DNA of 42,054 nucleotides, taken from the NCBI GenBank assembly GCA_046483985.1, contig JAWOCD010000109.1:1-42054 (forward strand), in the 5' to 3' direction. Both the position numbers and the translations under genes were made by a program. Shown here piece after piece: positions 4,543-24,708 of this stretch; position 1 is the first letter of the stretch, and each line of letters opens with the position of its first letter. The notes beneath the pieces are model-generated. The model was not told the DNA's origin. It was given only the letters and a program-made list of their open reading frames with translations, and searched no databases. The stretch comes from Promethearchaeia archaeon. GTDB taxonomy: Archaea > Asgardarchaeota > Lokiarchaeia > Sigyniarchaeales > SOKP01.

Positions 4543-6618
4543 GTGAAAACTATACTTCGTCAAGTATATATTTACAGAAATGAGGAGTTATTGTATTACA
4601 GGCAATTCGGAAAGGCATTAAAAGAAGAAACCTTTAATAATCTTGTTGAAGAACTTAAGGAAGATGCATTTGGACGAAACCCCAAGGAAATCGAGTATCA
4701 CGACTATTACAAATACAGAATCTCCTATACCGCTGACCAGGAACTCAATCTCATTTTTCTCTTCGTCACGGGGCTGACAGACGATTTTGATAACATTAAA
4801 AAAGAGTTGCTCAAGTGCAAGAAGGAATTTTTGAATCTCTTCGAGGATATCCTGGAGCATCATTCCGATGCGAAAACTTTTGAAGTGTTTGATCCGACAA
4901 TCGACTCCATTCATAAAAACCTCAGACCAAAGATAACCTTAATCGGATTCTCCGGAGTGGGCAAAACAACCATCACGAAATTAATTAAAGCAGAAGAGAT
5001 TCCAATGCAGCATATTCCGACCATAACCGGGGATATCGCCACCATTAAAATTGGAAAACTGCATTTCCATCTCTGGGATAATGCCGGACAAGAGCAATTC
5101 AGTTATTTATGGAGCAAGTTCTTGAAGGGGAGTGATGCAGTCTTATTAATCACGGATTCAAGTTTAGAAAATGTAGAAAAGAGCAAATTCTTCTTGGAGC
5201 TTATTGATGAAAATGCTCCGAATGCGCAAGTTGCTGTAATTGGAAATAAGCAAGATCTGCCCGATGCAATGGAGGCCGAAAACATTGAAAGGATCTTAGG
5301 GATTAAAACATACTCTATGATTGCAACTGATCCTGATAATCGAGATAAAATGATCCAGATTATTGCAGATGTTTTGGAAATGAATGCAGAAGTCTCTCCT
5401 TTATTACAACCGCTTTTGAAAAGAGATGAACTGACCGAAGAAGCAAAAGCTGCACTGGAAAGGGAGGAATTTGAAAAAGCGGCTTTATTATTCGATAAGA
5501 TTTCAGATCTGTGCATAGATTTAGGAGATGACGGATTGGGAAGAGAGTTTTATAAAAAATCTCAAAAAATTAAGAAAATTTTAAAAATTGAAGAAGGAGA
5601 AGCGGCTCCAGAGGAAGCTACAGAAGCGGAAGCTTCCCAACCATCAGAAGCCCAACAACCGCCGATCGAAACTCCACAGCAAACTCCGCAAAAAAAACCG
5701 GAAGTTCAAAAACCGCCAACCGAAACTCCACAGGAAACTCCGCAAAAAAAACCGGAGGTTCAAAAACCGCCAACCGAAACTCCACAGCAAACTCCGCAAA
5801 AAACACCGGAAGTTCAAAAACCGCCAACCGAAACTCCACAGCAAACTCCGCAAAAAACACCGGAGGTTCAAAAACCTCAAGGTGAAGCCCCACAAGGTCC
5901 AAAATCACAGCAACAAAGTGTACCAACCTCTATGGAGTTTGGAGAAAAATCAAAGACGACTCAAGAGCCCACCGCTTCAAAAGCTGCAAATGAAATAAAA
6001 AAACCACAGATAAAGAATTCAGAAAAACCGAAAAAGAAGAAAATCGGAGGGGTTAAACTGGATCCAAAAGATTTCATGGTAAAAAGTAAACCGAAAAAAA
6101 TTACTTCCATTCCGAGAGATGCGAAATCAAAGCTGAAATCCTCTCCCTTTGAACATGTAAAAAAACCCAAGAAAAAGGCCAAAAAGAAGGCCAAGTCTCC
6201 CACAGAGTTAATCAAATCGGCGTCAAAAAAGAAAACGCAAAAGGCGAGCAAGCCAAAGGTTTCAGCGGAAGAACAAGCAAAACCCCCCAAGCAAGCAAAA
6301 CAAAAACCCACCACCACACAGGAAAAACCAGCGACCTCCCCTGCTCAGTCAGTAGAGCCCGAAACTAAGACTAAGACCCCTCCATCCCCAGTAGAAACGG
6401 AGGAAATGGATCCTCAACAGAAGAAAAAGTTAAAAAAGACCTTAGTCCAGCTCAAACTCAAAAAGACTGACATAGAGAATATGTCTCTTGATTTCGAAAT
6501 GAAAGAATTATCCGGGGAAATTACAAGTGAGGAATTAAAAGAAAAACAAGCCAAGTTACAAGCGATGGAACAAAAAGTGAAAAACCGAATCAAGGACATC
6601 CAAGAGATGCTCAAATAG
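4543..6618 (+). CDS. Multidomain small GTPase: longin-like N-terminus + Arf/Rag-like GTPase + helical module + Pro/Lys-rich tail + coiled coil
   Basis: G1 GFSGVGKT, G3 WDNAGQ, G4 NKQD. The N-terminal ~125 aa has a longin-like pattern (QVYIY...LLYYRQF...LIFLFVT). GTG start. Confidence 0.8.
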   Translation: MKTILRQVYIYRNEELLYYRQFGKALKEETFNNLVEELKEDAFGRNPKEIEYHDYYKYRISYTADQELNLIFLFVTGLTDDFDNIKKELLKCKKEFLNLFEDILEHHSDAKTFEVFDPTIDSIHKNLRPKITLIGFSGVGKTTITKLIKAEEIPMQHIPTITGDIATIKIGKLHFHLWDNAGQEQFSYLWSKFLKGSDAVLLITDSSLENVEKSKFFLELIDENAPNAQVAVIGNKQDLPDAMEAENIERILGIKTYSMIATDPDNRDKMIQIIADVLEMNAEVSPLLQPLLKRDELTEEAKAALEREEFEKAALLFDKISDLCIDLGDDGLGREFYKKSQKIKKILKIEEGEAAPEEATEAEASQPSEAQQPPIETPQQTPQKKPEVQKPPTETPQETPQKKPEVQKPPTETPQQTPQKTPEVQKPPTETPQQTPQKTPEVQKPQGEAPQGPKSQQQSVPTSMEFGEKSKTTQEPTASKAANEIKKPQIKNSEKPKKKKIGGVKLDPKDFMVKSKPKKITSIPRDAKSKLKSSPFEHVKKPKKKAKKKAKSPTELIKSASKKKTQKASKPKVSAEEQAKPPKQAKQKPTTTQEKPATSPAQSVEPETKTKTPPSPVETEEMDPQQKKKLKKTLVQLKLKKTDIENMSLDFEMKELSGEITSEELKEKQAKLQAMEQKVKNRIKDIQEMLK
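5659..5874 (+). repeat. Four 54-bp in-frame tandem repeats (PPTETPQQTPQKTPEVQK)
   Basis: Units start at 5659, 5713, 5767 and 5821 and are near-identical at DNA level. Confidence 0.95.
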
Positions 6619-11628: not shown

Positions 11629-12156
11629 CTATTCATCCATATCATTAACAATTCTATTGGTCAACTCCACGAAGGCTTCTTCCACCTTCTCTCCCGTTTT
11701 TGCCGAGGTCTCAATGTAAGTACTCCCTTCTTTTTCCGCATACTCCTTTGCCTCTGAACGATCGACCACTTCTCCCATTGCCTCTACTAAATCTAATTTG
11801 TTCCCGATAAGTACGAACGGAATATCGGGTTTGGTAAACTCTCTCACCTCAGATAACCAATGTTTCACTTCTTCAAAGGTTCCGAGTCTGGTGAGATCAA
11901 ACACCAGCAGTGCACCGGCAGCGCCACGATAAAACGTGGTTCGTATTGATTGAAATCGTTTCTGGCCGCCTACATCCCAAATTGATAATGTTGCAGTTTC
12001 TCCTGAATCCACTTCCACTTTTTTTGTTTTAAAATCAACGCCCACGGTTAACTCATAATTTGCTTGAAACTCATCGTTGATAAAGCGATGCACAAGGGAT
12101 GTTTTTCCCACCGCTCCTGCTCCGATTAAAATCATCTTTAATTTATATGAACTCAT
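11629..12156 (-). CDS. Rab-like small GTPase
   Basis: GAGAVGKT, TVGVDF, WDVGGQ, FYRGA, LVFDLT, GNKLD, ETSAK; no C-terminal Cys tail. Confidence 0.93.
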   Translation of the reverse strand: MSSYKLKMILIGAGAVGKTSLVHRFINDEFQANYELTVGVDFKTKKVEVDSGETATLSIWDVGGQKRFQSIRTTFYRGAAGALLVFDLTRLGTFEEVKHWLSEVREFTKPDIPFVLIGNKLDLVEAMGEVVDRSEAKEYAEKEGSTYIETSAKTGEKVEEAFVELTNRIVNDMDE

Positions 12157-12237
12157 AATACAAACACTTATGTAATAGAAATATTCTTGAATCGATATAA
12201 TATTGAATCAAAATAAGAGAGTTAAGTAAAAATATGT

Positions 12238-12765
12238 TTAGCTTTGGCGAGAATGAATAATCTGCTGGGTTAATTCGGTAAATGCCTGTTCAACATTCAC
12301 ACCTGTTTTTGCCGAGGTCTCGATATAGATGCTTCCTTCCTCTTCGGCAAATGCTCGGGCTTCTTCCCTGTCTATTACCATTCCTACATCCTCCACTAAG
12401 TCTAATTTATTACCGATTAGTACAAATGGAAGATCCGGTTTGGCAAACTGTTTTATTTCACTGAGCCATTTACGGGTTTCCGTGAATGTTTGTTCTCGAG
12501 TAAGGTCGAAGACAAGTAATGCCCCCGCAGCTCCTTTATAGAAGGTGGATCTTATAAATTCGAAGCGTTGTTGTCCGCCTATATCCCAAATCGATAAGGT
12601 AGCGATTTTTCCAGGCTCGAATTCGACGTCTTTAGTTAGAATATCTACCCCGACCGTCAATTTATAATTTGCTTGAAATTTATCTTTGATAAACCGCTGT
12701 ACGAGCGAGGTTTTTCCCACAGCCGCTGCACCAGCCAAGATGGTCTTCAGTTTGAAGCTACTCAT
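12238..12765 (-). CDS. Rab-like small GTPase (tandem paralog)
   Basis: GAAAVGKT, TVGVDI, WDIGGQ, FYKGA, LVFDLT, GNKLD, ETSAK; same length (175 aa) as its neighbour. Confidence 0.93.
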   Translation of the reverse strand: MSSFKLKTILAGAAAVGKTSLVQRFIKDKFQANYKLTVGVDILTKDVEFEPGKIATLSIWDIGGQQRFEFIRSTFYKGAAGALLVFDLTREQTFTETRKWLSEIKQFAKPDLPFVLIGNKLDLVEDVGMVIDREEARAFAEEEGSIYIETSAKTGVNVEQAFTELTQQIIHSRQS

Positions 12766-13106
12766 TCAGTTTTTTACTCCTTAGTGTGATTATTTCACGA
12801 TAATTTTTAATATTTTATTATTATATAAACTATTATTATTAAAAATGATATTTAAGAATTTATTTTCGCTTTCTTTCAAGATGAATTTCTAAATAATTAA
12901 TCTCTCAAATAGTTTTATAAATTTTAAAATGATGCAATGAATATATTTTTAATGCGTTGGAAACAGATAAAACCCTCACAGTAAACACTAGAAATATTCA
13001 TTTATGAACAAGGCTGGAGAGTAAATATTAAGTAGATACAAATTTAAAATTATAAATGAGAAGTAGTTGTTATTATTATTATATTTAGAAAAAAGAGAAT
13101 ATAAAA

Positions 13107-16100
13107 ATGCAAAGAAAACCAACATCCGAGGAGCTAGCCCAACAAGCGTTAGACCTTTTAGAAAAGGCGGAAAGATACGAGCAAGAAAAGAATTGGAGTA
13201 AATCCATCCAATTTTATTCCGAAGCTGCTGAGAAATTAAAAGCCAGCGGATTTTTAATGCATCGGATCGAAGATATCTACAATAGGATTACGCGGTTGAA
13301 TAAATTTATCGAACAAAAGCAAAAGTATGCGCAGCAAAGCCAGCAACAACAAGTCCAAAAACTCCAAGATCAAGCCTTCGCCTTGTTAGATCAGGCCAAA
13401 GAACTCGAGTCGGGGGGAAGATTTAAAGATGCGATCGAGCAATATATGGACGCCATCAAATTATTAGCACAATCTGGATGGACGGAAGCACAGTTAGAGA
13501 ACCTCAAATCAAAAGTTAAGGAGTTGGCAAAGAAGGCCGAGCAACAACAGCAAGTAGAGCAGCAAATGGAGTTACAATCTTCTCAACAGCAAGCGGGAAC
13601 TGCTGGTCCTCAGCAAGTACAGCCAGCGCAGTCAGGGCAAGAGGGACAAGTAAGCGGAAAAGCAAAGGCACTAAGAGAATACGAAAAGAAGAAGAAAAAA
13701 GAGGAAGAGATACAAAATCAAGCGTTTTCACATATCGATAACGCGAAAATGTTTGAAAAGGAGAAAAAATATCAAGAAGCAATCTTAAATTATGAGAAGG
13801 CAATAGAATTATTAGACTCATTAGGATGGACGCAGCAAACGAAAAATTTACGAGGCGTCGTAGAGCAACTGCAAAGAGAGAAACAAGAATATGAAGCGAG
13901 TGAACAAAGAGAGGCACAAGGAGGTCAGCAGACTACAGCTGTTTCCGGGGAAGAACAAGCCACGGATGAACCAAGTATGGATATGCAAAAGGCGCCTAAA
14001 TTGGAAGAACAAAAATTATATGAATACGAGGAGAAAAAGCGCAAAGAAGAGGAAATCCAAAATAAAGCATTTCAATTAATAGACGAAGGGAAGCGGCTCG
14101 AACGAGAGAAAAAGTATAGCGATGCAATTGAATCCTTCCAGAAAGCAATTGATATGCTCAAATCTATAGAGTGGGACAGTTATATCCAACCGGTCCGTGA
14201 ATTCATTAACAAAATAAAACAAAAACAGCAATCGGAATCAAAGGCAGTAGAACTTAAAGAGAAGAGAGAGCAAGAATTAGAGCAACTTCAGCAATCCATT
14301 CAAAAGAAGCAAAAAGACCAATTTGTGGAGTCTGCACAGAAATTAGAATTAAAACGAAGAGAATTTGAGAAGCAAAAAGCAAAACAAGCCCAAAAGGAAA
14401 AGGAATTCTTTGCATTATTAGATAAGGCAGACAAGTTATTAAATGAAAGAAATTTTGCCGGGGCAATTAATAAATACCAAACGGCACTACAGAAGCTAAA
14501 TTCTTTAGGGGAAGGGTGGCAATCCTACATTCCAACCATTAAAAATACGATTTCCGTGATCAAAAAGAAACAACAACAAAAGATCCAGCGAGAACAAAAA
14601 TTAAAGGAGGAACAAGAACTAAGGAAGCACGAGGAGAAGGAGTTCCAAAAACAAGTTTCAGATAAGATGAAAAAGGAGCAACAGAAATTAAAGCAAAAAG
14701 AAATTGTTCTAAAACGAAGAGAGGACGAAATAAAATACCGAGAAAAAAAGAAGGAAGCAGCTTTCAAATATCTGGATGCGGCACAGAATTATCTGCAGCA
14801 AAAAGAATTCGACAAAGCCATCTATGCCTATCAAAATGCTGGGAATGTGTTTGCTGAAATTCAATGGACCGAGGAACTATCACAGATAGAAGATGCAATA
14901 AAAGAAGTAGAAAACAAGAAAGAAGAATATCAAAAACGGAAAGAGAAACAATTAGAACAGAAGATAAAACGTCAACAAGAACAAAAAGAATTCCAGCAGA
15001 GCATTACTCAGATGCTACAGGAAGAAAGAGAAAAGATCAAACAACGCCAAATACAAATAAAAGAAAGAGAAAAACAGCAAGCTTACTTCGATCAGAGAAA
15101 AGAAGAAGCGTTTACCAAGATTGAAAAGGCACAGAATTTTGTAAGTAAAACAAAGTTCGAAGAAGCCCTAGAATTATATCGAGAGGTAGTCAATATTTTT
15201 GCCGAAATCCATTGGGATGAGGAGATCCCACTAATTCAGAATGCAATTTCAGATATAAAAGAAAAGCAGCATGAATTGAAAGTAAGGAAAGAGCAAGAGC
15301 AGCAAAAGCGCATCCTCGAACAACAGAAAGAAAAAGAGTTTCAGCTGGAAATAATGGAGATGACAAAGCAGCATCAAGAGGAGTTAGAAAAACAAAAATT
15401 AAGGCTCAGAGAACGAAAAAAAGAACAACAATACAGAGAAAATAGGAAAAAGCGAGCATTTAAATTAATTGATAAGGCAAAAGAGTTCCTTTCCCGGGGA
15501 GAATTTGATAAATCTCTTAAATTATACCGCGAAGTTTCGAATATCTTTGCACAAATCCAATGGACTGAGGAGATCCCCATAATTAAGAGGGCTATAGAAA
15601 AGGTTAAGAAGAAAAAGAGAAAACAAGAGATTTTGGAGGAGCAAAAACGGCAAGAGGAAATTCAACAAGAAACCGCGCAGTTAGCCTTTATTAATCAAAT
15701 AAAGCAACAACGAAAAGTCGAAAAAGAAAAAGAACTTGAAAAGCAGCAACAGCTCAAAGCACAACAACAATTATCGGAGGAAATGGCTCAAAAACAAGAA
15801 AATGCCATGAATCTGGTAGATGAAGGAGATGTACTCTTAAAACAAAATAAATTCGAGGAGGCTCTTAATAACTATCAGAAAGCAAAAAAACAGTTCAAGG
15901 AGATAGGATGGTCAGAGGCATATCTAAAGACATTAGAAGATTCAATTGAAACGATTAAATTAAGAAAAAGAGAGTATGAAAAACAAAAGGAAAAAGAAAG
16001 GTTACGTCAGAAGAAACAAGAGGAGAAAAACAGAAAATTCCAACAAGAAATCGCCAGGAAATTGGAAGACGAAAAGAAACGAATGAAAGTTAAAGAAATT

Positions 16101-18104
16101 AAGGTTAAAAAACAAGAGGAAATAAAACAACTCGTCCAAAGCAAGAAGAAAAAGGCATTTGGACTGTTGGACGAGGCCGAAGATCTTGTAAAAGAACAAA
16201 AATATGATCCCGCGCTCGAAAAGTACCATGAAGCAGAATTGCTTTTAAATGAAATCCAATATCCCACCAATGCAATTAAAGAGATGCGTGTTAAAGTTAA
16301 AAAGAAAAAGAAAAAACACGAGCGGAAACAACAAAAGCAGAGAGAAGCGGAACTCAAAGCGCAACAGGAAAATTTGCTATTCCAACAGAGAGTTACTGAA
16401 AATATTAACTTAAAGAAGGAAAAATTGAGGAAAAAAGAAATCAGACTCAAGAAACAAAAAGAATTACAACAATATTTTGAGAAGCGGAAAAATGACGCCT
16501 TTAATCTACTGGAGGAGGCGGAGATATTTCTCAAAAAGGGAAATTATGATAAATCCTTAGAATTTTACCATAGCGCCCAAATTATATTAAACGAAATTCA
16601 TTTCCCCACTAAATCAATTAAGGAAATGATTAATAAAGTTAGAAAAAAGAAGAAGCAAGCGGAATTGAGGAAAGAGAAAGAATTAGAGAGACAATTAGCG
16701 CAAGAACAAGCTGAAAAAGAATTTCAACAAAGAAAAGCGGAAGAAATTAAGAAAGAGCAGAAGCGTCTTAAAATAAAAGAGATTAAGATTAAAAAGCGTA
16801 AAGAAATGCAACAACTGATCCAAAGGAATAAAAAAGAAGCTTTTGAATTACTGGACCAAGGCGAGGATTATGTCAATTCGGGACAATACGATAAAGCTTT
16901 AGAAACATATAGAAAAGCCGAACTGCTTCTGAATGAAATCCAATTTCCCACAGATGCGATTAAGGAAACGATCGTAAAAGTCTCCAATCTAAAGGAGCAA
17001 AAGGAGATGGAACAAGAACGAAGATTGCAAACCAAGTTGGAACAAATTAAAGAACAAGAAGAAATAGAAAAAATAATAGAAGAGAGAAAACAACAAGAGG
17101 AGGAAAAAAGGAAAGCGCAAAGGGAGGCGCTCCAAAAGCGGGAAAAACTCATACAAAAACAGCAAAACATCAGGGAAACGTCTTATTCCTTACTTGAAGA
17201 GGCGGGTAAATTTCTTAAACAATATACACCCGATTATGACAAGGCGATTTCTCTCTATGTGCAAGCCCGCAATTTATTAGCGGAAAACATCGGTTGGGAG
17301 CCAGAGATTAAAAACTTGAATAGATTGATCCGTGGGCTTCAACAAGAAAAAGAGGAATTCTTGAAACAGAAACGGAGAGAAAAAGAGGCAAAAATTCAGC
17401 AGCAACAAGAATATGAACAGTTCCAAGAGGAGATTCGAAGGAGACAACGAGAGTTCGAAGAGAAAAGAGAGAAACAGAGAGAGAAAATGCAGGAATTGCA
17501 AGAGCAGCGAAAACTGGCAGAGCAAATTAAAAAACAGGGATTTAACTTGCTGGATGAGGCAAAAAAACTTACAAGATTCCACAAATTTGAGGATGCCTAC
17601 GAAAAGTTCAATACCGCCAAACAAAAGTTTCGAGAGATCGGGTGGTCAAAGCAGATAAAATACATCGAGAAAGAGATTAAAAATGCCGAAAATCTGGAGC
17701 AAGAAGTTCAGAGAGAAAAATTAGAAAGAGAACAAATCGAAAAAGAATTAGAACAACAAAGAAAGCTGGAAGAAAAAAAGCGAGAAGAAGAATATCAAAG
17801 GATGAAGGACACCGTTGGGGAAGTGGGAGATTTAGCAGGCGATGTTGCGAATTTAATTGAGGAAGAACAGCAACGATTGCAATTGACGGAAAAGCAAAAG
17901 CAAGAACAGTTAATACGCGAATCAAAGGAATTTAAAAGGAATATCGCCAAGATGATGGAGATTAAGCAAGAGCTTCGAGCGGAATTGGAAAAGGCAAAAG
18001 AAAAGGAAAAGCAAAAACAAGAAGAGAAGAAAAAGAAGAAACACGAAGAACAAATAGATGAGATCTCTAAACTGCTTGACGATGTCTCAAAAGATGGGGA
18101 TTAA
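13107..18104 (+). CDS. Giant helical repeat protein: 14 MIT/TPR-like modules separated by E/K/Q/R-rich helices
   Basis: Recurrent AFxLLDxAxxxxxxxxY/FxxAxxxYxxAxxxxxxIxW motif; the central spacings I measured are 114-116 aa. Confidence 0.85.
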   Translation: MQRKPTSEELAQQALDLLEKAERYEQEKNWSKSIQFYSEAAEKLKASGFLMHRIEDIYNRITRLNKFIEQKQKYAQQSQQQQVQKLQDQAFALLDQAKELESGGRFKDAIEQYMDAIKLLAQSGWTEAQLENLKSKVKELAKKAEQQQQVEQQMELQSSQQQAGTAGPQQVQPAQSGQEGQVSGKAKALREYEKKKKKEEEIQNQAFSHIDNAKMFEKEKKYQEAILNYEKAIELLDSLGWTQQTKNLRGVVEQLQREKQEYEASEQREAQGGQQTTAVSGEEQATDEPSMDMQKAPKLEEQKLYEYEEKKRKEEEIQNKAFQLIDEGKRLEREKKYSDAIESFQKAIDMLKSIEWDSYIQPVREFINKIKQKQQSESKAVELKEKREQELEQLQQSIQKKQKDQFVESAQKLELKRREFEKQKAKQAQKEKEFFALLDKADKLLNERNFAGAINKYQTALQKLNSLGEGWQSYIPTIKNTISVIKKKQQQKIQREQKLKEEQELRKHEEKEFQKQVSDKMKKEQQKLKQKEIVLKRREDEIKYREKKKEAAFKYLDAAQNYLQQKEFDKAIYAYQNAGNVFAEIQWTEELSQIEDAIKEVENKKEEYQKRKEKQLEQKIKRQQEQKEFQQSITQMLQEEREKIKQRQIQIKEREKQQAYFDQRKEEAFTKIEKAQNFVSKTKFEEALELYREVVNIFAEIHWDEEIPLIQNAISDIKEKQHELKVRKEQEQQKRILEQQKEKEFQLEIMEMTKQHQEELEKQKLRLRERKKEQQYRENRKKRAFKLIDKAKEFLSRGEFDKSLKLYREVSNIFAQIQWTEEIPIIKRAIEKVKKKKRKQEILEEQKRQEEIQQETAQLAFINQIKQQRKVEKEKELEKQQQLKAQQQLSEEMAQKQENAMNLVDEGDVLLKQNKFEEALNNYQKAKKQFKEIGWSEAYLKTLEDSIETIKLRKREYEKQKEKERLRQKKQEEKNRKFQQEIARKLEDEKKRMKVKEIKVKKQEEIKQLVQSKKKKAFGLLDEAEDLVKEQKYDPALEKYHEAELLLNEIQYPTNAIKEMRVKVKKKKKKHERKQQKQREAELKAQQENLLFQQRVTENINLKKEKLRKKEIRLKKQKELQQYFEKRKNDAFNLLEEAEIFLKKGNYDKSLEFYHSAQIILNEIHFPTKSIKEMINKVRKKKKQAELRKEKELERQLAQEQAEKEFQQRKAEEIKKEQKRLKIKEIKIKKRKEMQQLIQRNKKEAFELLDQGEDYVNSGQYDKALETYRKAELLLNEIQFPTDAIKETIVKVSNLKEQKEMEQERRLQTKLEQIKEQEEIEKIIEERKQQEEEKRKAQREALQKREKLIQKQQNIRETSYSLLEEAGKFLKQYTPDYDKAISLYVQARNLLAENIGWEPEIKNLNRLIRGLQQEKEEFLKQKRREKEAKIQQQQEYEQFQEEIRRRQREFEEKREKQREKMQELQEQRKLAEQIKKQGFNLLDEAKKLTRFHKFEDAYEKFNTAKQKFREIGWSKQIKYIEKEIKNAENLEQEVQREKLEREQIEKELEQQRKLEEKKREEEYQRMKDTVGEVGDLAGDVANLIEEEQQRLQLTEKQKQEQLIRESKEFKRNIAKMMEIKQELRAELEKAKEKEKQKQEEKKKKKHEEQIDEISKLLDDVSKDGD

Positions 18105-18126: not shown

Positions 18127-19677
18127 TTACTTTTTGTTAAGATATGAAGGATTAACTCTTTTCCTTATAATATATATCAAGCTTATTAGATTTAACCCAA
18201 AAAGGATAACAATTAAGACTGCCCGTTCATCAAATACGAGCGATATCTTAAATGTCCCTTCTGTGCCTGAATTAAGGAGGGCTTTGACGACTAAATAGTA
18301 ACTTTGGTCTTTTTCAGTAAAAAATCCCATTCTCTGTTGCGATGAGGATTGAGTTAATAAACTTAAAGTATCGGTTACGAGCTGGGGATTTCCGTAGGAA
18401 TCTGATTCTCTTGCGAAAAGAAACATCTCAGCTTTTAATGAATCCAAGCTATCCAGTTGGAGGAAGTATTGATCCGGGGGAACGGTTAAAGGAAGGCACA
18501 ATACACCTATTTCATGGTTTAAATGAAATTCTAAGTCGAAATTTTGAGTAATCCTGGTGGGCGTTTCAAGCGCCCTTAAAGCGGCATACCCATTCACACG
18601 CCCCCACCCTTGTGCGTTATCTTTAAGAGTTTGCTGTTCCTCCGTTCTAATAGAAGTCATAGAGATAATGCTCTTGAGATCCTTAGAAGTCAACTCGTCG
18701 TTTTTTTCAAGCATTAACGCCGCAAGACCAGCCACCATGGGGGTAGAGGCAGAAGTTCCGGATCTTGAGATGTACTCCTCTAAAGACCCTTCCTTGCTCG
18801 CCCCTAAAATGGACACTGCAGGTGCACATACATCGGGTTTAATTACACCTTCATTGGTAGGGCCTCTTCCGCTTTTTGGATAGATGTTTCCTTCCTCATC
18901 CAGCCCCCCCACTGCTAGTGCGGATTTTGCAGACGCGGGAGAGGTAATCGTTCCCGACCCCTCCGCTCCATAATTCCCTGCGGAGGCAACAACAAGAATG
19001 TCTTGAAAGAATAGATCATCCACCATCTCATGCAATCTTTCAACTTCATCTTGGTTACCGGAATTAATTTCTGCACCGAAACTCATGCTTACTATTCTAA
19101 TATTGTATTTCTCCTTGTTTTCTATAAGCCAGTTAACGGCTCTTTCAACAATATCGGGATCAGAGACAATTTCATCATCCTCATTATATTTAAACACTTG
19201 CATGATGATAAAATTCACATCCGGTGCAACCCCTTGATAATCAGTACCATTCCCCCCTAAAATAGACGCGGTCCAGGTTCCATGCCAGTAAATATCCTCT
19301 GGGTCATCGGTCACTCCGTCCTCTTTTTCATCCCAAAATTCCTGAATTCGCTCACTCCAATTAATTCTCCCTGCATCCGTAAAGGCATTGTGTTCGGCCC
19401 GAATTCCAGTATCCAAAACAGCAACAGTTACATTATTTCCCGTATAGTTAATTGGATATTGGGAATTATTTGCGGAGATGAGATCTTGAGCATTGTATTG
19501 ATCGAGAAGATTGTTCTCCCCCGTATTCCCTGAAAATATGTTCGGCGTCAGAGAATTTCCATTTTTTCGATGATTTTCGCAAAGAAGAGATAAGAACGAT
19601 GTACTAATGAGAACTATAAGAAAGAACAAAGTGAGTATTTTCTTTTTCCGTTGCTTTACTAAACTAAAAGAGCGCAT
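18127..19677 (-). CDS. Membrane-anchored S8 subtilisin-like serine protease
   Basis: VAVLDTG, HGTWTAS, SAGN, KPDVCAP, SGTSASTP; N-terminal signal/TM and C-terminal TM. Confidence 0.92.
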   Translation of the reverse strand: MRSFSLVKQRKKKILTLFFLIVLISTSFLSLLCENHRKNGNSLTPNIFSGNTGENNLLDQYNAQDLISANNSQYPINYTGNNVTVAVLDTGIRAEHNAFTDAGRINWSERIQEFWDEKEDGVTDDPEDIYWHGTWTASILGGNGTDYQGVAPDVNFIIMQVFKYNEDDEIVSDPDIVERAVNWLIENKEKYNIRIVSMSFGAEINSGNQDEVERLHEMVDDLFFQDILVVASAGNYGAEGSGTITSPASAKSALAVGGLDEEGNIYPKSGRGPTNEGVIKPDVCAPAVSILGASKEGSLEEYISRSGTSASTPMVAGLAALMLEKNDELTSKDLKSIISMTSIRTEEQQTLKDNAQGWGRVNGYAALRALETPTRITQNFDLEFHLNHEIGVLCLPLTVPPDQYFLQLDSLDSLKAEMFLFARESDSYGNPQLVTDTLSLLTQSSSQQRMGFFTEKDQSYYLVVKALLNSGTEGTFKISLVFDERAVLIVILFGLNLISLIYIIRKRVNPSYLNKK

Positions 19678-19833: not shown

Positions 19834-21423
19834 TTGAAAATGAGTGAAAAAAACGACGAGATTTTTAAATCGCGGATGTTTGCACGACAGCAACTTATCG
19901 ATGGGTGGGATCAAACGGTCCTCAATCAAGGATGTATTATGATAGTCGGTGTGGGCGCGTTAGGATGTGAGATTGCAAAGGATTTCGCACTCATGGGGAT
20001 CGGAAAACTGATCTTAGTGGATCTGGACTTAATCGAAACCTCCAATCTATCACGGCAAATGCTGTTTAGACCAGGGGATGAGGGGCGACCAAAGGCAGAA
20101 GTCGCCGCAGAACGTCTGAAAGAGATGAATCCCTATCTTGAAATTGATTCGTATTTTAAGAAACTTCAAAAACTTCCCATGGATGTTTACGAGGAAGCTG
20201 ATGTAGTCATCATGGCCTTAGATAATTATAATGCTCGATTGGACCTCAATAATATTTGTTTAAGATTAGAGAAGCCTTGCGTGGAAGGAGGGACAGTCGG
20301 GTTTGAAGGACATGTGCAAGTGATCATCCCCGAAGGAAGCGAAATTCCCTATAGAAAACGCGAGAACGAAATAGATAAAATAGTGGATGAAAAATTGTGG
20401 TATTTGGATGAAGAAGAATATCCAGAATATTTCGAAGCCCAAGAAGAAATTACCCAATTGGAAAGGAAAATTGAAAAGTTAAAAGAAGAAAAGATACAAC
20501 CTGTAAAGGATGAAATACGGCAGCAAGTGGAACAAGAGTTTGATGAAAAATACGCGGATGAAGTGCTAAACCAGACCCCGTGTTACCGATGTTTAGTTCC
20601 CATGCCCCCTCCGGACGATAAACTGGTTGCCGCTTGTACGTTAAAAGGGCTGCCCCGAAACCGAAATCATTGCGTGATCAAAGCGGAAGTCGATTTTGAA
20701 AAAGAATATGGGCATAAGCCGGATTTAACCGACGATAAAGAGGTCCTTCAATTAATGGATTTAGCTCAACATCAATTGGAACAACTAAGGGAACGCGTGT
20801 TCAAGGAAAACGTGTCCGAAGAGCAGCTCAAACAAATGAGCGAGGAGGAGATCCAAGAATGGAGGGAAAATATTAAAGAAACATTTGGTCCAGATTACAA
20901 GTTCGAGGAAATGGAGAATATCTTGGGGAACAAGATCGCAGCTATTCAGACAGTGAGTTCCATAATCTCCAGCATTGAATCGCAAGAGGCGCTAAAATTA
21001 CTCTTTCGCGTGAACGGTAAGAATATCGGAGAACCGATGAATCCTCCATATCTCAATTATAATGGCACCTACGGGCAATTTGATCCTTTAAATATTAACA
21101 AACGAGAAGAATGTTTAGCATGCGGAGACGTCGAGGGAGAAGAAAATGTGCAGATTGTCGTGCCGTTTGATGCAGACATAGAATATATCTTTGAAGCAAT
21201 GGAAATTTCTGGGCATAAACTGGATCCCGAATCGTGGATGATTACTAACCCAATGTCGAAGGAAATGTATTGGAATCCATTAGTTGAAAGTTTTAGAAAC
21301 CCCGAAAAAAAATTGAAATCCCTAGAAATAGAGAGTAATGATGTCATTAATCTTACTCCCTTGGGAGACGCAAAAGAAAATTCTGACATAAAAAAATATA
21401 ACGTCGTAGTCACCTATATGTAG
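19834..21423 (+). CDS. Ubiquitin/Ubl-activating enzyme E1 (ThiF/UBA family, eukaryote-like)
   Basis: GVGALGCE, SNLSRQMLF, ALDN, EGGTVGFEG, CYRC, catalytic-type CTLKGLPRNRNHC, CLAC and a C-terminal extension. Confidence 0.9.
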   Translation: MKMSEKNDEIFKSRMFARQQLIDGWDQTVLNQGCIMIVGVGALGCEIAKDFALMGIGKLILVDLDLIETSNLSRQMLFRPGDEGRPKAEVAAERLKEMNPYLEIDSYFKKLQKLPMDVYEEADVVIMALDNYNARLDLNNICLRLEKPCVEGGTVGFEGHVQVIIPEGSEIPYRKRENEIDKIVDEKLWYLDEEEYPEYFEAQEEITQLERKIEKLKEEKIQPVKDEIRQQVEQEFDEKYADEVLNQTPCYRCLVPMPPPDDKLVAACTLKGLPRNRNHCVIKAEVDFEKEYGHKPDLTDDKEVLQLMDLAQHQLEQLRERVFKENVSEEQLKQMSEEEIQEWRENIKETFGPDYKFEEMENILGNKIAAIQTVSSIISSIESQEALKLLFRVNGKNIGEPMNPPYLNYNGTYGQFDPLNINKREECLACGDVEGEENVQIVVPFDADIEYIFEAMEISGHKLDPESWMITNPMSKEMYWNPLVESFRNPEKKLKSLEIESNDVINLTPLGDAKENSDIKKYNVVVTYM

Positions 21424-24198: not shown

Positions 24199-24708
24199 AT
24201 GAGAATTGAAACTGATTATGCCGAAGCAGTAGAGGCCTATAAAGACGACCCTCATGTCCACATTGAACCATGGGGCAAAAGCATAAAGCATTTGCGACTT
24301 ACAATAACTGGAAAGGAAGATACGCCATACGAAGGCGGAGAATTTGTATTTGAGATAAAATTCCCAGACAACTACCCGTTTCAGCCCCCCTATGCCTACG
24401 CTGTCACTCTAATGTGGCACCCGAACATCGACTCGTCCATTCCGCCGGGGAAATTAAATATTTGTTTGGACCTAATTAACCCTGATCTCGTAGGAAAAGT
24501 CGATGCCTCTACGGGAGCCTCGGGTTGGACTCCGGCAAAGACATTAACGAACATTATCGAAGCATTAAAAGGTATGATGCATGTAGAACCACCATTCTTT
24601 AATCCGGGCGACCCGCTCAATCACGAAGCGGGAGAGCAGTATTTTAGAGCTAAGAAGAAATTCGAGTCCAAAGCGGAAAAATGGACCGAAAAATATGCCA
24701 TGGATTAA
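24199..24708 (+). CDS. Ubiquitin-conjugating enzyme E2
   Basis: DTPYEGGEF, FPDNYPFQPP, WHPNID, ICLDL, WTPA, DPLNHEAG. Confidence 0.95.
   Translation: MRIETDYAEAVEAYKDDPHVHIEPWGKSIKHLRLTITGKEDTPYEGGEFVFEIKFPDNYPFQPPYAYAVTLMWHPNIDSSIPPGKLNICLDLINPDLVGKVDASTGASGWTPAKTLTNIIEALKGMMHVEPPFFNPGDPLNHEAGEQYFRAKKKFESKAEKWTEKYAMD

Follow-up and report, generated by a model that had tools for sequence, protein, structure and literature searches.

We identified a gene for a giant modular protein in a 42,054-nucleotide stretch of DNA (hereafter the window) from a Promethearchaeia archaeon (assembly GCA_046483985.1, contig JAWOCD010000109.1). The window is part of an Asgard (Loki-type) genome of 4.06 Mb, which is divided over 128 contigs and is 97% complete. 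The protein, which we refer to as the rod protein, is predicted to be a string of beads on a continuous helical rod, and it is the 14-module member of a giant poly-MIT rod family in one order of Lokiarchaeia. The architecture modelled for it, with many MIT-type bundles, residue-exact spacing and a quantised module number, is well supported in silico. A Rab-like gene is the sole neighbour that the rod gene keeps across two families. The rod gene and its parts are as follows.

13107-18104, forward strand: rod gene, an open reading frame for 1665 amino acids (aa)
13107-13568, forward strand: rod residues 1-154, predicted N-terminal tandem MIT head with modules 1 and 2 (AlphaFold2, Foldseek, VIA)
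13569-14048, forward strand: rod residues 155-314, module 3 between two linkers rich in Q, G, S and T and predicted to be flexible (linkers read directly)
14049-17738, forward strand: rod residues 315-1544, predicted rigid array with modules 4-14 (spacing, gapless alignment, AlphaFold2)
17739-18104, forward strand: rod residues 1545-1665 and the stop codon, most of the C-terminal tail (alignment of relatives)

The sequence-only reading of this DNA had described a protein of 1665 aa with 14 modules, and both numbers hold: the reading frame is open from 13107 to 18104, and with seven clear modules as its seed, a profile search detects 14, each scoring between E 3e-19 and 8e-25 in a genome-wide profile search. 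The modules start at residues 10, 86, 202, 317, 430, 548, 664, 780, 896, 1013, 1127, 1241, 1355 and 1474, with spacings of 76, 116, 115, 113, 118, 116, 116, 116, 117, 114, 114, 114 and 119 aa. The regular period noticed earlier is supported by these spacings, the first pair lying 76 aa apart and all others 113-119 aa. The hairpin of each module was said to end in I-x-W/F/Y, which is the case in 10 of the 14 modules; the other four end in SGF, SGW, LGW or EGW. E, K, Q and R together make up 53% of the residues and Cys is absent. The protein had been read as free of transmembrane segments and enzyme motifs. In agreement with this, the best 19-residue Kyte-Doolittle window reaches 0.36, Pfam finds no enzyme family, and no RING, U-box, catalytic or other non-MIT domain is present. 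The modules are 10-25% identical to one another and the rod gene contains no unit-length DNA repeat, indicating that the array is old and was not recently amplified.

Searched as a whole against Pfam, the rod protein matches the MIT family (PF04212) in eight stretches (E 5.8e-21, 74.8 bits, cut-off 30), and TPR families come next (TPR_2, 61 bits). When modules 1-10 were scanned singly, MIT was the best family for modules 1-8; module 2 scored 32.3 bits, above the curated cut-off, and modules 1 and 3-8 gave E values from 7e-6 to 4e-3. A profile of all 14 modules matched consensus-TPR designs first, through a core of 22 residues; its matches to the MIT domains of Vps4A/SKD1 and Sulfolobus CdvC, to calpain-7 and to gamma-SNAP cover longer parts of the module. 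The head was modelled with AlphaFold2 using 119 relatives (pLDDT 96), with helices at residues 7-26, 30-47, 51-102, 106-122 and 127-153. The top Foldseek match of this model is the calpain-7 tandem MIT:IST1 structure (8uc6; probability 1.0, 24% identity over 147 columns, whole target covered). The same structure is ranked first (Z 10.9) by VIA, a search independent of Foldseek, which also returned the MIT domains of Vps4 (2v6x; Z 10.4, root-mean-square deviation (rmsd) 2.3 A, 72 of 82 residues), MITD1 (Z 10.0, rmsd 1.9 A) and CdvC (2w2u; Z 9.8, rmsd 1.5 A), as well as those of SKD1, katanin p60, NRBF2, USP8, ULK3 and Atg1. Because VIA Z values of about 10 are common among helical bundles generally, the MIT assignment rests on Pfam, on the full-domain coverage and on the low rmsd.

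In the models of the head and of a three-module segment described below, the module is an isolated antiparallel three-helix bundle of about 70 residues (AlphaFold2 pLDDT 96 and 87; VIA). The choice between MIT, TPR and SNAP folds, which the sequence-only reading had left to modelling, came out as MIT bundles for both models, with gamma-SNAP among the profile matches. Pfam, Foldseek and VIA agree on the MIT-like three-helix bundles proposed earlier, and by these models and searches the rod modules are MIT-type bundles that form no stacked TPR superhelix. A TPR superhelix was rejected: there is one hairpin per 113-119 residues, each is capped by a third helix, and about 50 helical residues lie between successive bundles.

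For the regular part of the protein, residues 544-902 (three modules) were modelled from 120 sequences at pLDDT 87; the pTM of this model is only 0.39, leaving its long-range shape uncertain. Its helices span model residues 2-21, 25-41, 45-137, 141-157, 161-253, 257-273 and 280-358. Helix 3 of each bundle runs on for 93 residues to become helix 1 of the next bundle, and both AlphaFold2 models (pLDDT 87 and 96) show unbroken helices between modules, as the beads-on-a-rod architecture put forward earlier had it. Each unit comprises about 20 residues up, 17 down and 73 up, a net of about 76 helical residues. At 0.15 nm per residue this corresponds to a period of about 11 nm and a whole rod of about 0.15 micrometre, figures that are arithmetic from secondary structure and no measured distances. 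Foldseek found no global match to the three-module model (best E 0.05), only local matches of the size of an MIT domain.

A search of 5.8 billion proteins returned 232 matches to the rod protein. The best 120 of these 232 matches, to which the comparisons below refer, are full-length relatives from Asgard metagenome-assembled genomes, named "hypothetical" or "TPR repeat protein", and are 32-80% identical to the query over the aligned block. From module 4 on, nearly all 120 relatives have spacings of 113, 118/119, 116, 116, 116, 117, 114, 114, 114 and 119 aa; exceptions are rare and confined to single proteins. The 359-column alignment of the 120 sequences contains no gaps. Spacings 2-3 and 3-4 range from 97 to 119 aa among the relatives and hold nearly all the length variation, and as the linkers round module 3 vary by up to 22 residues, insertions and deletions evidently occur where they are tolerated. 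The relatives fall into length classes of about 1650, 1890, 2120, 2340 and 2460 aa, corresponding to 14, 16, 18, 20 and 21 modules, the longer ones containing inserted blocks such as 116-116-117-114; beyond these classes there are related open reading frames of about 1,075 aa and about 2,927 aa. In comparison with a relative of 46% identity, each module is closest to the one at the same position, with 31-60% identity on the diagonal (leaving out one unit in which the anchors are offset by one residue) against 10-25% off the diagonal, which shows that each module is individually conserved and positionally orthologous. The scaffold or ruler proposed earlier is in line with this residue-exact spacing across 120 relatives, which fits a rigid structure of either kind.

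The linkers of the rigid array are predicted helices of about 50 residues that carry a mid-linker patch, KEFQxxI...L...L. Conservation of the patch residues (F, Q, I, L, then L, I/L) is 92-99% in the first of the aligned linkers, and the two linkers after it vary more at these positions; the patch sits about half a period from the bundle, and its motif recurs in 9 of the 13 linkers and in the tail. The sequence-only reading had taken the linkers for ER/K-rich single alpha helices, a claim that did not survive. Oppositely charged residues at i/i+4 occupy only 7-15% of the positions, Q accounts for about 20-25%, and each 59 residues include 12-13 hydrophobic ones; the ER/K single alpha helix was rejected on the sparse i/i+4 pairs, the richness in Q and the conserved hydrophobic patch. 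Clean heptad coiled coils appear not to fit either: the conserved-hydrophobicity spectrum of the linkers has no dominant peak near 103 degrees, though the linkers do show a short stripe with 4-4-7-7 spacing. The C-terminal tail is linker-like and 132-137 aa long in 118 relatives, which align in 137 columns. It ends in an amphipathic helix with the hydrophobic 0/3/4/7 pattern found in the MIT-interacting motif 1 (MIM1) and a conserved D-x-I-x-x-M/L-I/L motif. Most relatives have KKKK after this motif, where the window protein has acidic residues. The terminal helix is also present in a homologue from the sister family.

With a three-unit profile at E up to 1e-20, rod genes were found in 64 of 68 genomes of the window's own GTDB family, in one of seven genomes of the sister family and in none of the other Asgard genomes searched, which number about 225. 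Among 1.84 billion representatives, HMMER gave only 269 proteins at E up to 1e-3, of which 66 remain at E up to 1e-30. Pfam gave TPR-type matches or nothing for four distant, longer HMMER relatives (P0174, P0169, P0218, P0191). The sister-family homologue (P0275, 1165 aa; L066:14155-17652 in genome G210, "Ca. Harpocratesius repetitus") aligns with the rod protein by BLASTP at E 3e-20 over 548 residues with the modules in register; Pfam finds nothing in it at E up to 1e-3, and the homology rests on BLASTP. P0275 also has a long disordered region between its N-terminal and regular modules, with about five copies of YKPTF-x-x-T-D-Q-x-D-Y, and an S/T-rich stretch ahead of the conserved terminal helix. 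The window's genome encodes a paralogue on contig C18 (70534-74547), which has 1329 aa and at least nine modules at irregular spacings of 82-359 aa. In the literature searched on Asgard/Lokiarchaeota MIT-domain, giant and coiled-coil proteins, no published description of a poly-MIT rod architecture was found.

The genes around the rod gene in the window are the following.

11629-12156, reverse strand: Rab-like small GTPase, copy 1, 175 aa (Pfam Ras, E 7.7e-54)
12238-12765, reverse strand: Rab-like small GTPase, copy 2, 175 aa, tandem duplicate (Pfam Ras, E 4.2e-50)
12766-13106, no strand: divergent AT-rich intergenic region of 341 bp between Rab copy 2 and the rod gene (sequence read directly)
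18127-19677, reverse strand: S8 subtilase gene, 3' of the rod gene
19834-21423, forward strand: ThiF-type E1 gene, 3' of the rod gene
24199-24708, forward strand: UQ_con E2 gene, 3' of the rod gene
4543-6618, forward strand: gene for a 691-aa protein with an Arf-like GTPase core (Pfam)

The two tandem Rab-like genes that had been placed 341 bp from the rod gene in divergent orientation are indeed there, by their coordinates and by Pfam (Ras, E 1e-50 to 1e-54). Both proteins belong to the Ras family and are 70% identical to each other; the nearest proteins of solved structure are Rab14, a Thorarchaeota Rab, Rab11 and Rab1, and copy 1 has intact G1-G5 motifs. The linkage itself had been left to be checked across Asgard genomes. 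It extends to the family and the sister family in the form of a single Rab orthologue within a few kb, usually divergent, and the pair with its 341-bp spacer does not extend beyond the window's genus. The pair is a local duplication, the second copy and the shared spacer being limited to that genus. One Rab gene lies near the rod gene in those contexts of relatives that were read directly, and most genomes of the family return a single match.

The order in the window's own family is a large Arf-like GTPase gene, PHP, aspartate kinase, Rab-like (reverse), usually RACo (reverse), rod (forward), sometimes S8, and then E1 (ThiF), HAD and E2; in most relatives RACo thus stands between the Rab gene and the rod gene. 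Distances were obtained by comparing the coordinates of rod matches with those of Rab orthologues (60-69% identity) where both genes lie on one contig. In about 30 of 31 own-family genomes the Rab gene lies less than 6 kb from the 5' end of the rod gene, mostly at 2.3-3 kb, and is divergent; the exceptions are one genome with a gap of 23 kb and two in which the genes are co-oriented. Taken alone, this linkage could be inherited gene order. The Rab orthologue of the sister family is 61-67% identical, and the next-best paralogues reach 40-50%. In G210 it lies 0.39 kb from the P0275 gene, divergently, and in two further sister-family genomes the gaps between Rab and rod are 2.8 and 2.6 kb, with differing, unrelated genes between them. 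Aspartate kinase, PHP, RACo, E1, HAD and S8 are all missing near the sister-family rod homologue, downstream of which lies a D-aminoacyl-tRNA deacylase gene; this leaves the Rab-like gene as the only shared neighbour.

Weaker hints toward a Rab link come from the paralogue on contig C18, where a Ras-family gene lies 2 kb upstream and is separated from it by a gene for a proteasome alpha subunit, and from a fusion in G237, a genome of a third Lokiarchaeial family. The latter, a 323-aa open frame (L065:1060-2028, reverse strand), combines a Rab-like domain with an S/T/Q linker, a three-helix TPR/MIT-like module and a zinc ribbon of the CxxC...CxxC type; in Pfam, it matches the lunapark zinc ribbon weakly (E 2e-4) and its helical module gives a weak TPR match. 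One or two in-frame stop codons were seen in the Rab-orthologue matches of three genomes of the family (G291:C62:11483-12028, G301:C53:12634-13179 and G138:C134:3518-4060), which may be pseudogenes, sequencing errors or tandem copies.

The 691-aa Arf-like protein is syntenic within the window's own family. Apart from its GTPase core, inspection by eye suggests a short helical module resembling TPR and about 270 aa rich in P, Q, K and T, in which PEVQKPPTETPQ-type repeats stand in tandem. The protein closes with a coiled coil whose last helix, I-x-x-Q-I-x-x-hydrophobic-E-K-L-L, is kept in three orthologues. Kinship of the helical module with the rod modules was considered and is not supported (hhalign probability 1.9%, nothing in Pfam). 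No RNA dataset carrying the window stretch is listed; one freshwater-sediment DNA study alone contains part of it.

Components of an ESCRT system are encoded elsewhere in the genome. A Vps4 gene (411 aa; MIT E 1.5e-13, AAA, Vps4_C) lies divergent to two ESCRT-III genes (C8:18677-22340), which are 54% identical paralogues and have an unassigned 139-aa open reading frame between them; a third ESCRT-III gene is located on contig C1. All three ESCRT-III proteins end in MIM1-like motifs, and the motif L-E-K-E-L-N-R-L-K is conserved in 30 members of the family. MIM1-like tails of Asgard archaea bind the MIT domain of Vps4, as measured by isothermal titration calorimetry (PMC7240154). By homology, ESCRT-III tails would be a reasonable ligand class for the rod bundles.

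We tentatively favour, with a probability of roughly 0.4, a multivalent docking scaffold or tether of defined length that cooperates with the Rab-like GTPase encoded next to it and binds MIM-type helices. Every bundle would bind a short partner helix at fixed intervals, as the mid-linker patch may do too, and the rod would act together with the GTPase as long Rab-effector tethers do in eukaryotes. The ligands of the bundles would most likely be MIM-type amphipathic helices, with ESCRT-III tails as the prime candidate because the three ESCRT-III proteins of this genome end in MIM1-like motifs. A stronger form, in which the rod is a true Rab effector, a GTPase-controlled tether of quantised length whose knobs dock ESCRT-III-type tails, seems quite unlikely on present evidence. 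If true, it would mean that Rab signalling and ESCRT remodelling are physically coupled in an archaeon, in a prokaryotic counterpart of long tethers with a different fold.

Several observations weigh against the docking scaffold. Module 2 is the only one to pass the Pfam MIT cut-off singly, module 9 scores as TPR and module 10 matches no family. The Rab-like proteins have no C-terminal lipid-anchor Cys, which makes a role in membrane tethering not obvious. Unrelated genes (RACo and genes for an HTH protein, an acetyltransferase and a HEAT protein) lie between Rab and rod in most genomes, which speaks against transcription of both from one promoter. All the genomes compared are related to one another, and the cross-family signal comes from two families and three sister-family genomes. 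With about 70 small-GTPase candidates in 4 Mb, the C18 paralogue would have its GTPase neighbour by chance with a probability of about 0.09. The Vps4/ESCRT-III cluster is on another contig than the rod gene, and flexible MIM tails alone would not need residue-exact spacing.

An alternative is that the rod is an accessory of ESCRT-III and Vps4 with no Rab role, its bundles docking ESCRT-III MIM tails multivalently and its C-terminal helix being read by the Vps4 MIT domain. We consider this possible but unlikely. In its favour are the agreement of the modules with MIT in both family and fold, the likeness of the head to the IST1-binding tandem MIT of calpain-7, the conserved MIM1-like motifs of the own-family ESCRT-III tails, and the 0/3/4/7 pattern at the end of the rod tail, which is itself MIM1-like and conserved into the sister family. 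However, the rod gene was never seen beside ESCRT genes, which cluster on contig C8, and ESCRT-III is found across Asgard archaea (PMC10936438) whereas the rod is limited to one order. Tails on flexible linkers leave the exact spacing unexplained, and when the rod profile is compared with the MIT domain of Vps4 from the same organism, the match is weak (24 columns, probability 56%).

The exact spacing would be accounted for by a self-assembling skeletal lattice following the logic of spectrin or lamin, in which rods would lie alongside one another or staggered, each packing its mid-linker patch on a bundle or linker of its neighbours. The hydrophobic patch (F, I, L, L, I/L), so highly conserved in the first of the aligned linkers, where the rest of the helix is charged, points in this direction, as do its recurrence in most linkers and in the tail at about half a period from the bundle and the spectrin-like connectivity of the helices. 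The spacing is residue-exact and yet the units are unequal (113-119 aa), which suits a chain-to-chain register better than an outside periodic filament. Clean heptad periodicity is absent from the linkers, however, and block duplications of two, four or six units would have to stay compatible with the lattice; we rate this explanation, too, as having a minor chance of being correct.

A ruler or stabiliser bound along a filament, in the manner of nebulin or tropomyosin, would place one bundle per fixed number of subunits on lokiactin or another polymer. The module number is quantised and the spacing fixed, and the period of about 11 nm equals four subunit rises of F-actin, which are 2.75 nm each. 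Against this, the length of successive units varies by up to 6 residues, which leaves the array short of strict periodicity, there is no linked actin-related gene, and genera differ in their module number, something that a fixed-length filament would not require. MIT domains are also not known to bind actin, and the filament-bound ruler is improbable. Least probable of all is that the rod serves the ubiquitin-like conjugation system encoded next to it as a scaffold, in the role of an E3-like adaptor for the E1 (19834-21423) and the E2 (24199-24708): the E1 gene runs in the same direction as the rod gene and is adjoining or one gene away in six of six own-family contexts, but the sister-family homologue has the deacylase gene downstream and no E1, E2 or S8 nearby, and the rod has neither a RING or U-box domain nor any Cys.

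Asgard archaea have many Rab-like, Arf-like and ESCRT genes, but hardly any effector or scaffold is known from which the targets of these proteins could be read. Here MIT, an interaction domain of eukaryotic type, appears multiplied 14-21 times on a predicted rigid rod whose spacing is under strict selection. The Rab-like gene kept as a neighbour across two families gives a testable candidate Rab-effector pair in archaea and the first candidate partner for the rod family. As the rod is large, free of Cys, predicted to be soluble and of a length that should show by electron microscopy, it lends itself well to experimental testing. New here are the Rab linkage across families, the homologue in the sister family, the conserved patch in mid-linker and the rejection of single-alpha-helix linkers.

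Several known systems resemble the rod protein in part. Helices 1 and 2 of each module fit the TPR consensus as in TPR proteins, but the hairpins of the rod are lone, capped by a third helix and separated by a long helix, with no stacking every 34 residues. The rods of spectrin, alpha-actinin and dystrophin likewise continue the last helix of one repeat unbroken into the next and have a fixed unit length. Their units (about 106 residues in spectrin) are fully bundled, whereas the rod has short bundles with about 50 connecting residues exposed, and Pfam spectrin (PF00435) gives no match to the rod at E up to 1. As in the rulers nebulin and tropomyosin, rod length changes by whole modules and unit lengths are kept exactly; these proteins differ in that there is no homology and no linked filament gene, and in that the rod units are unequal. 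The Rab-effector tethers EEA1 and golgins such as GCC185 are elongated helical proteins of 0.1-0.2 micrometre, comparable to a rod whose gene is linked to a Rab-like gene in two families. They are not homologous to it, being dimeric coiled coils with membrane-anchoring ends, whereas the rod has neither a clear heptad signal nor an anchor domain, the Rab-like proteins carry no prenylation Cys, and the link is one of gene neighbourhood.

Another such group is the MIT proteins, which include Vps4/CdvC, MITD1, katanin p60, NRBF2 and USP8 as well as the tandem forms in calpain-7, ULK3 and Atg1. They share with the modelled rod modules a three-helix bundle of about 65-70 residues in which a TPR-like A/B hairpin is completed by a third helix. 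The rod differs from them in having no catalytic or other domain and in its later modules, which score below the Pfam cut-off. Where these proteins have one or two copies of the domain, the rod has 14 and its relatives 14-21, joined in the models by continuous 93-residue helices at residue-exact spacing.

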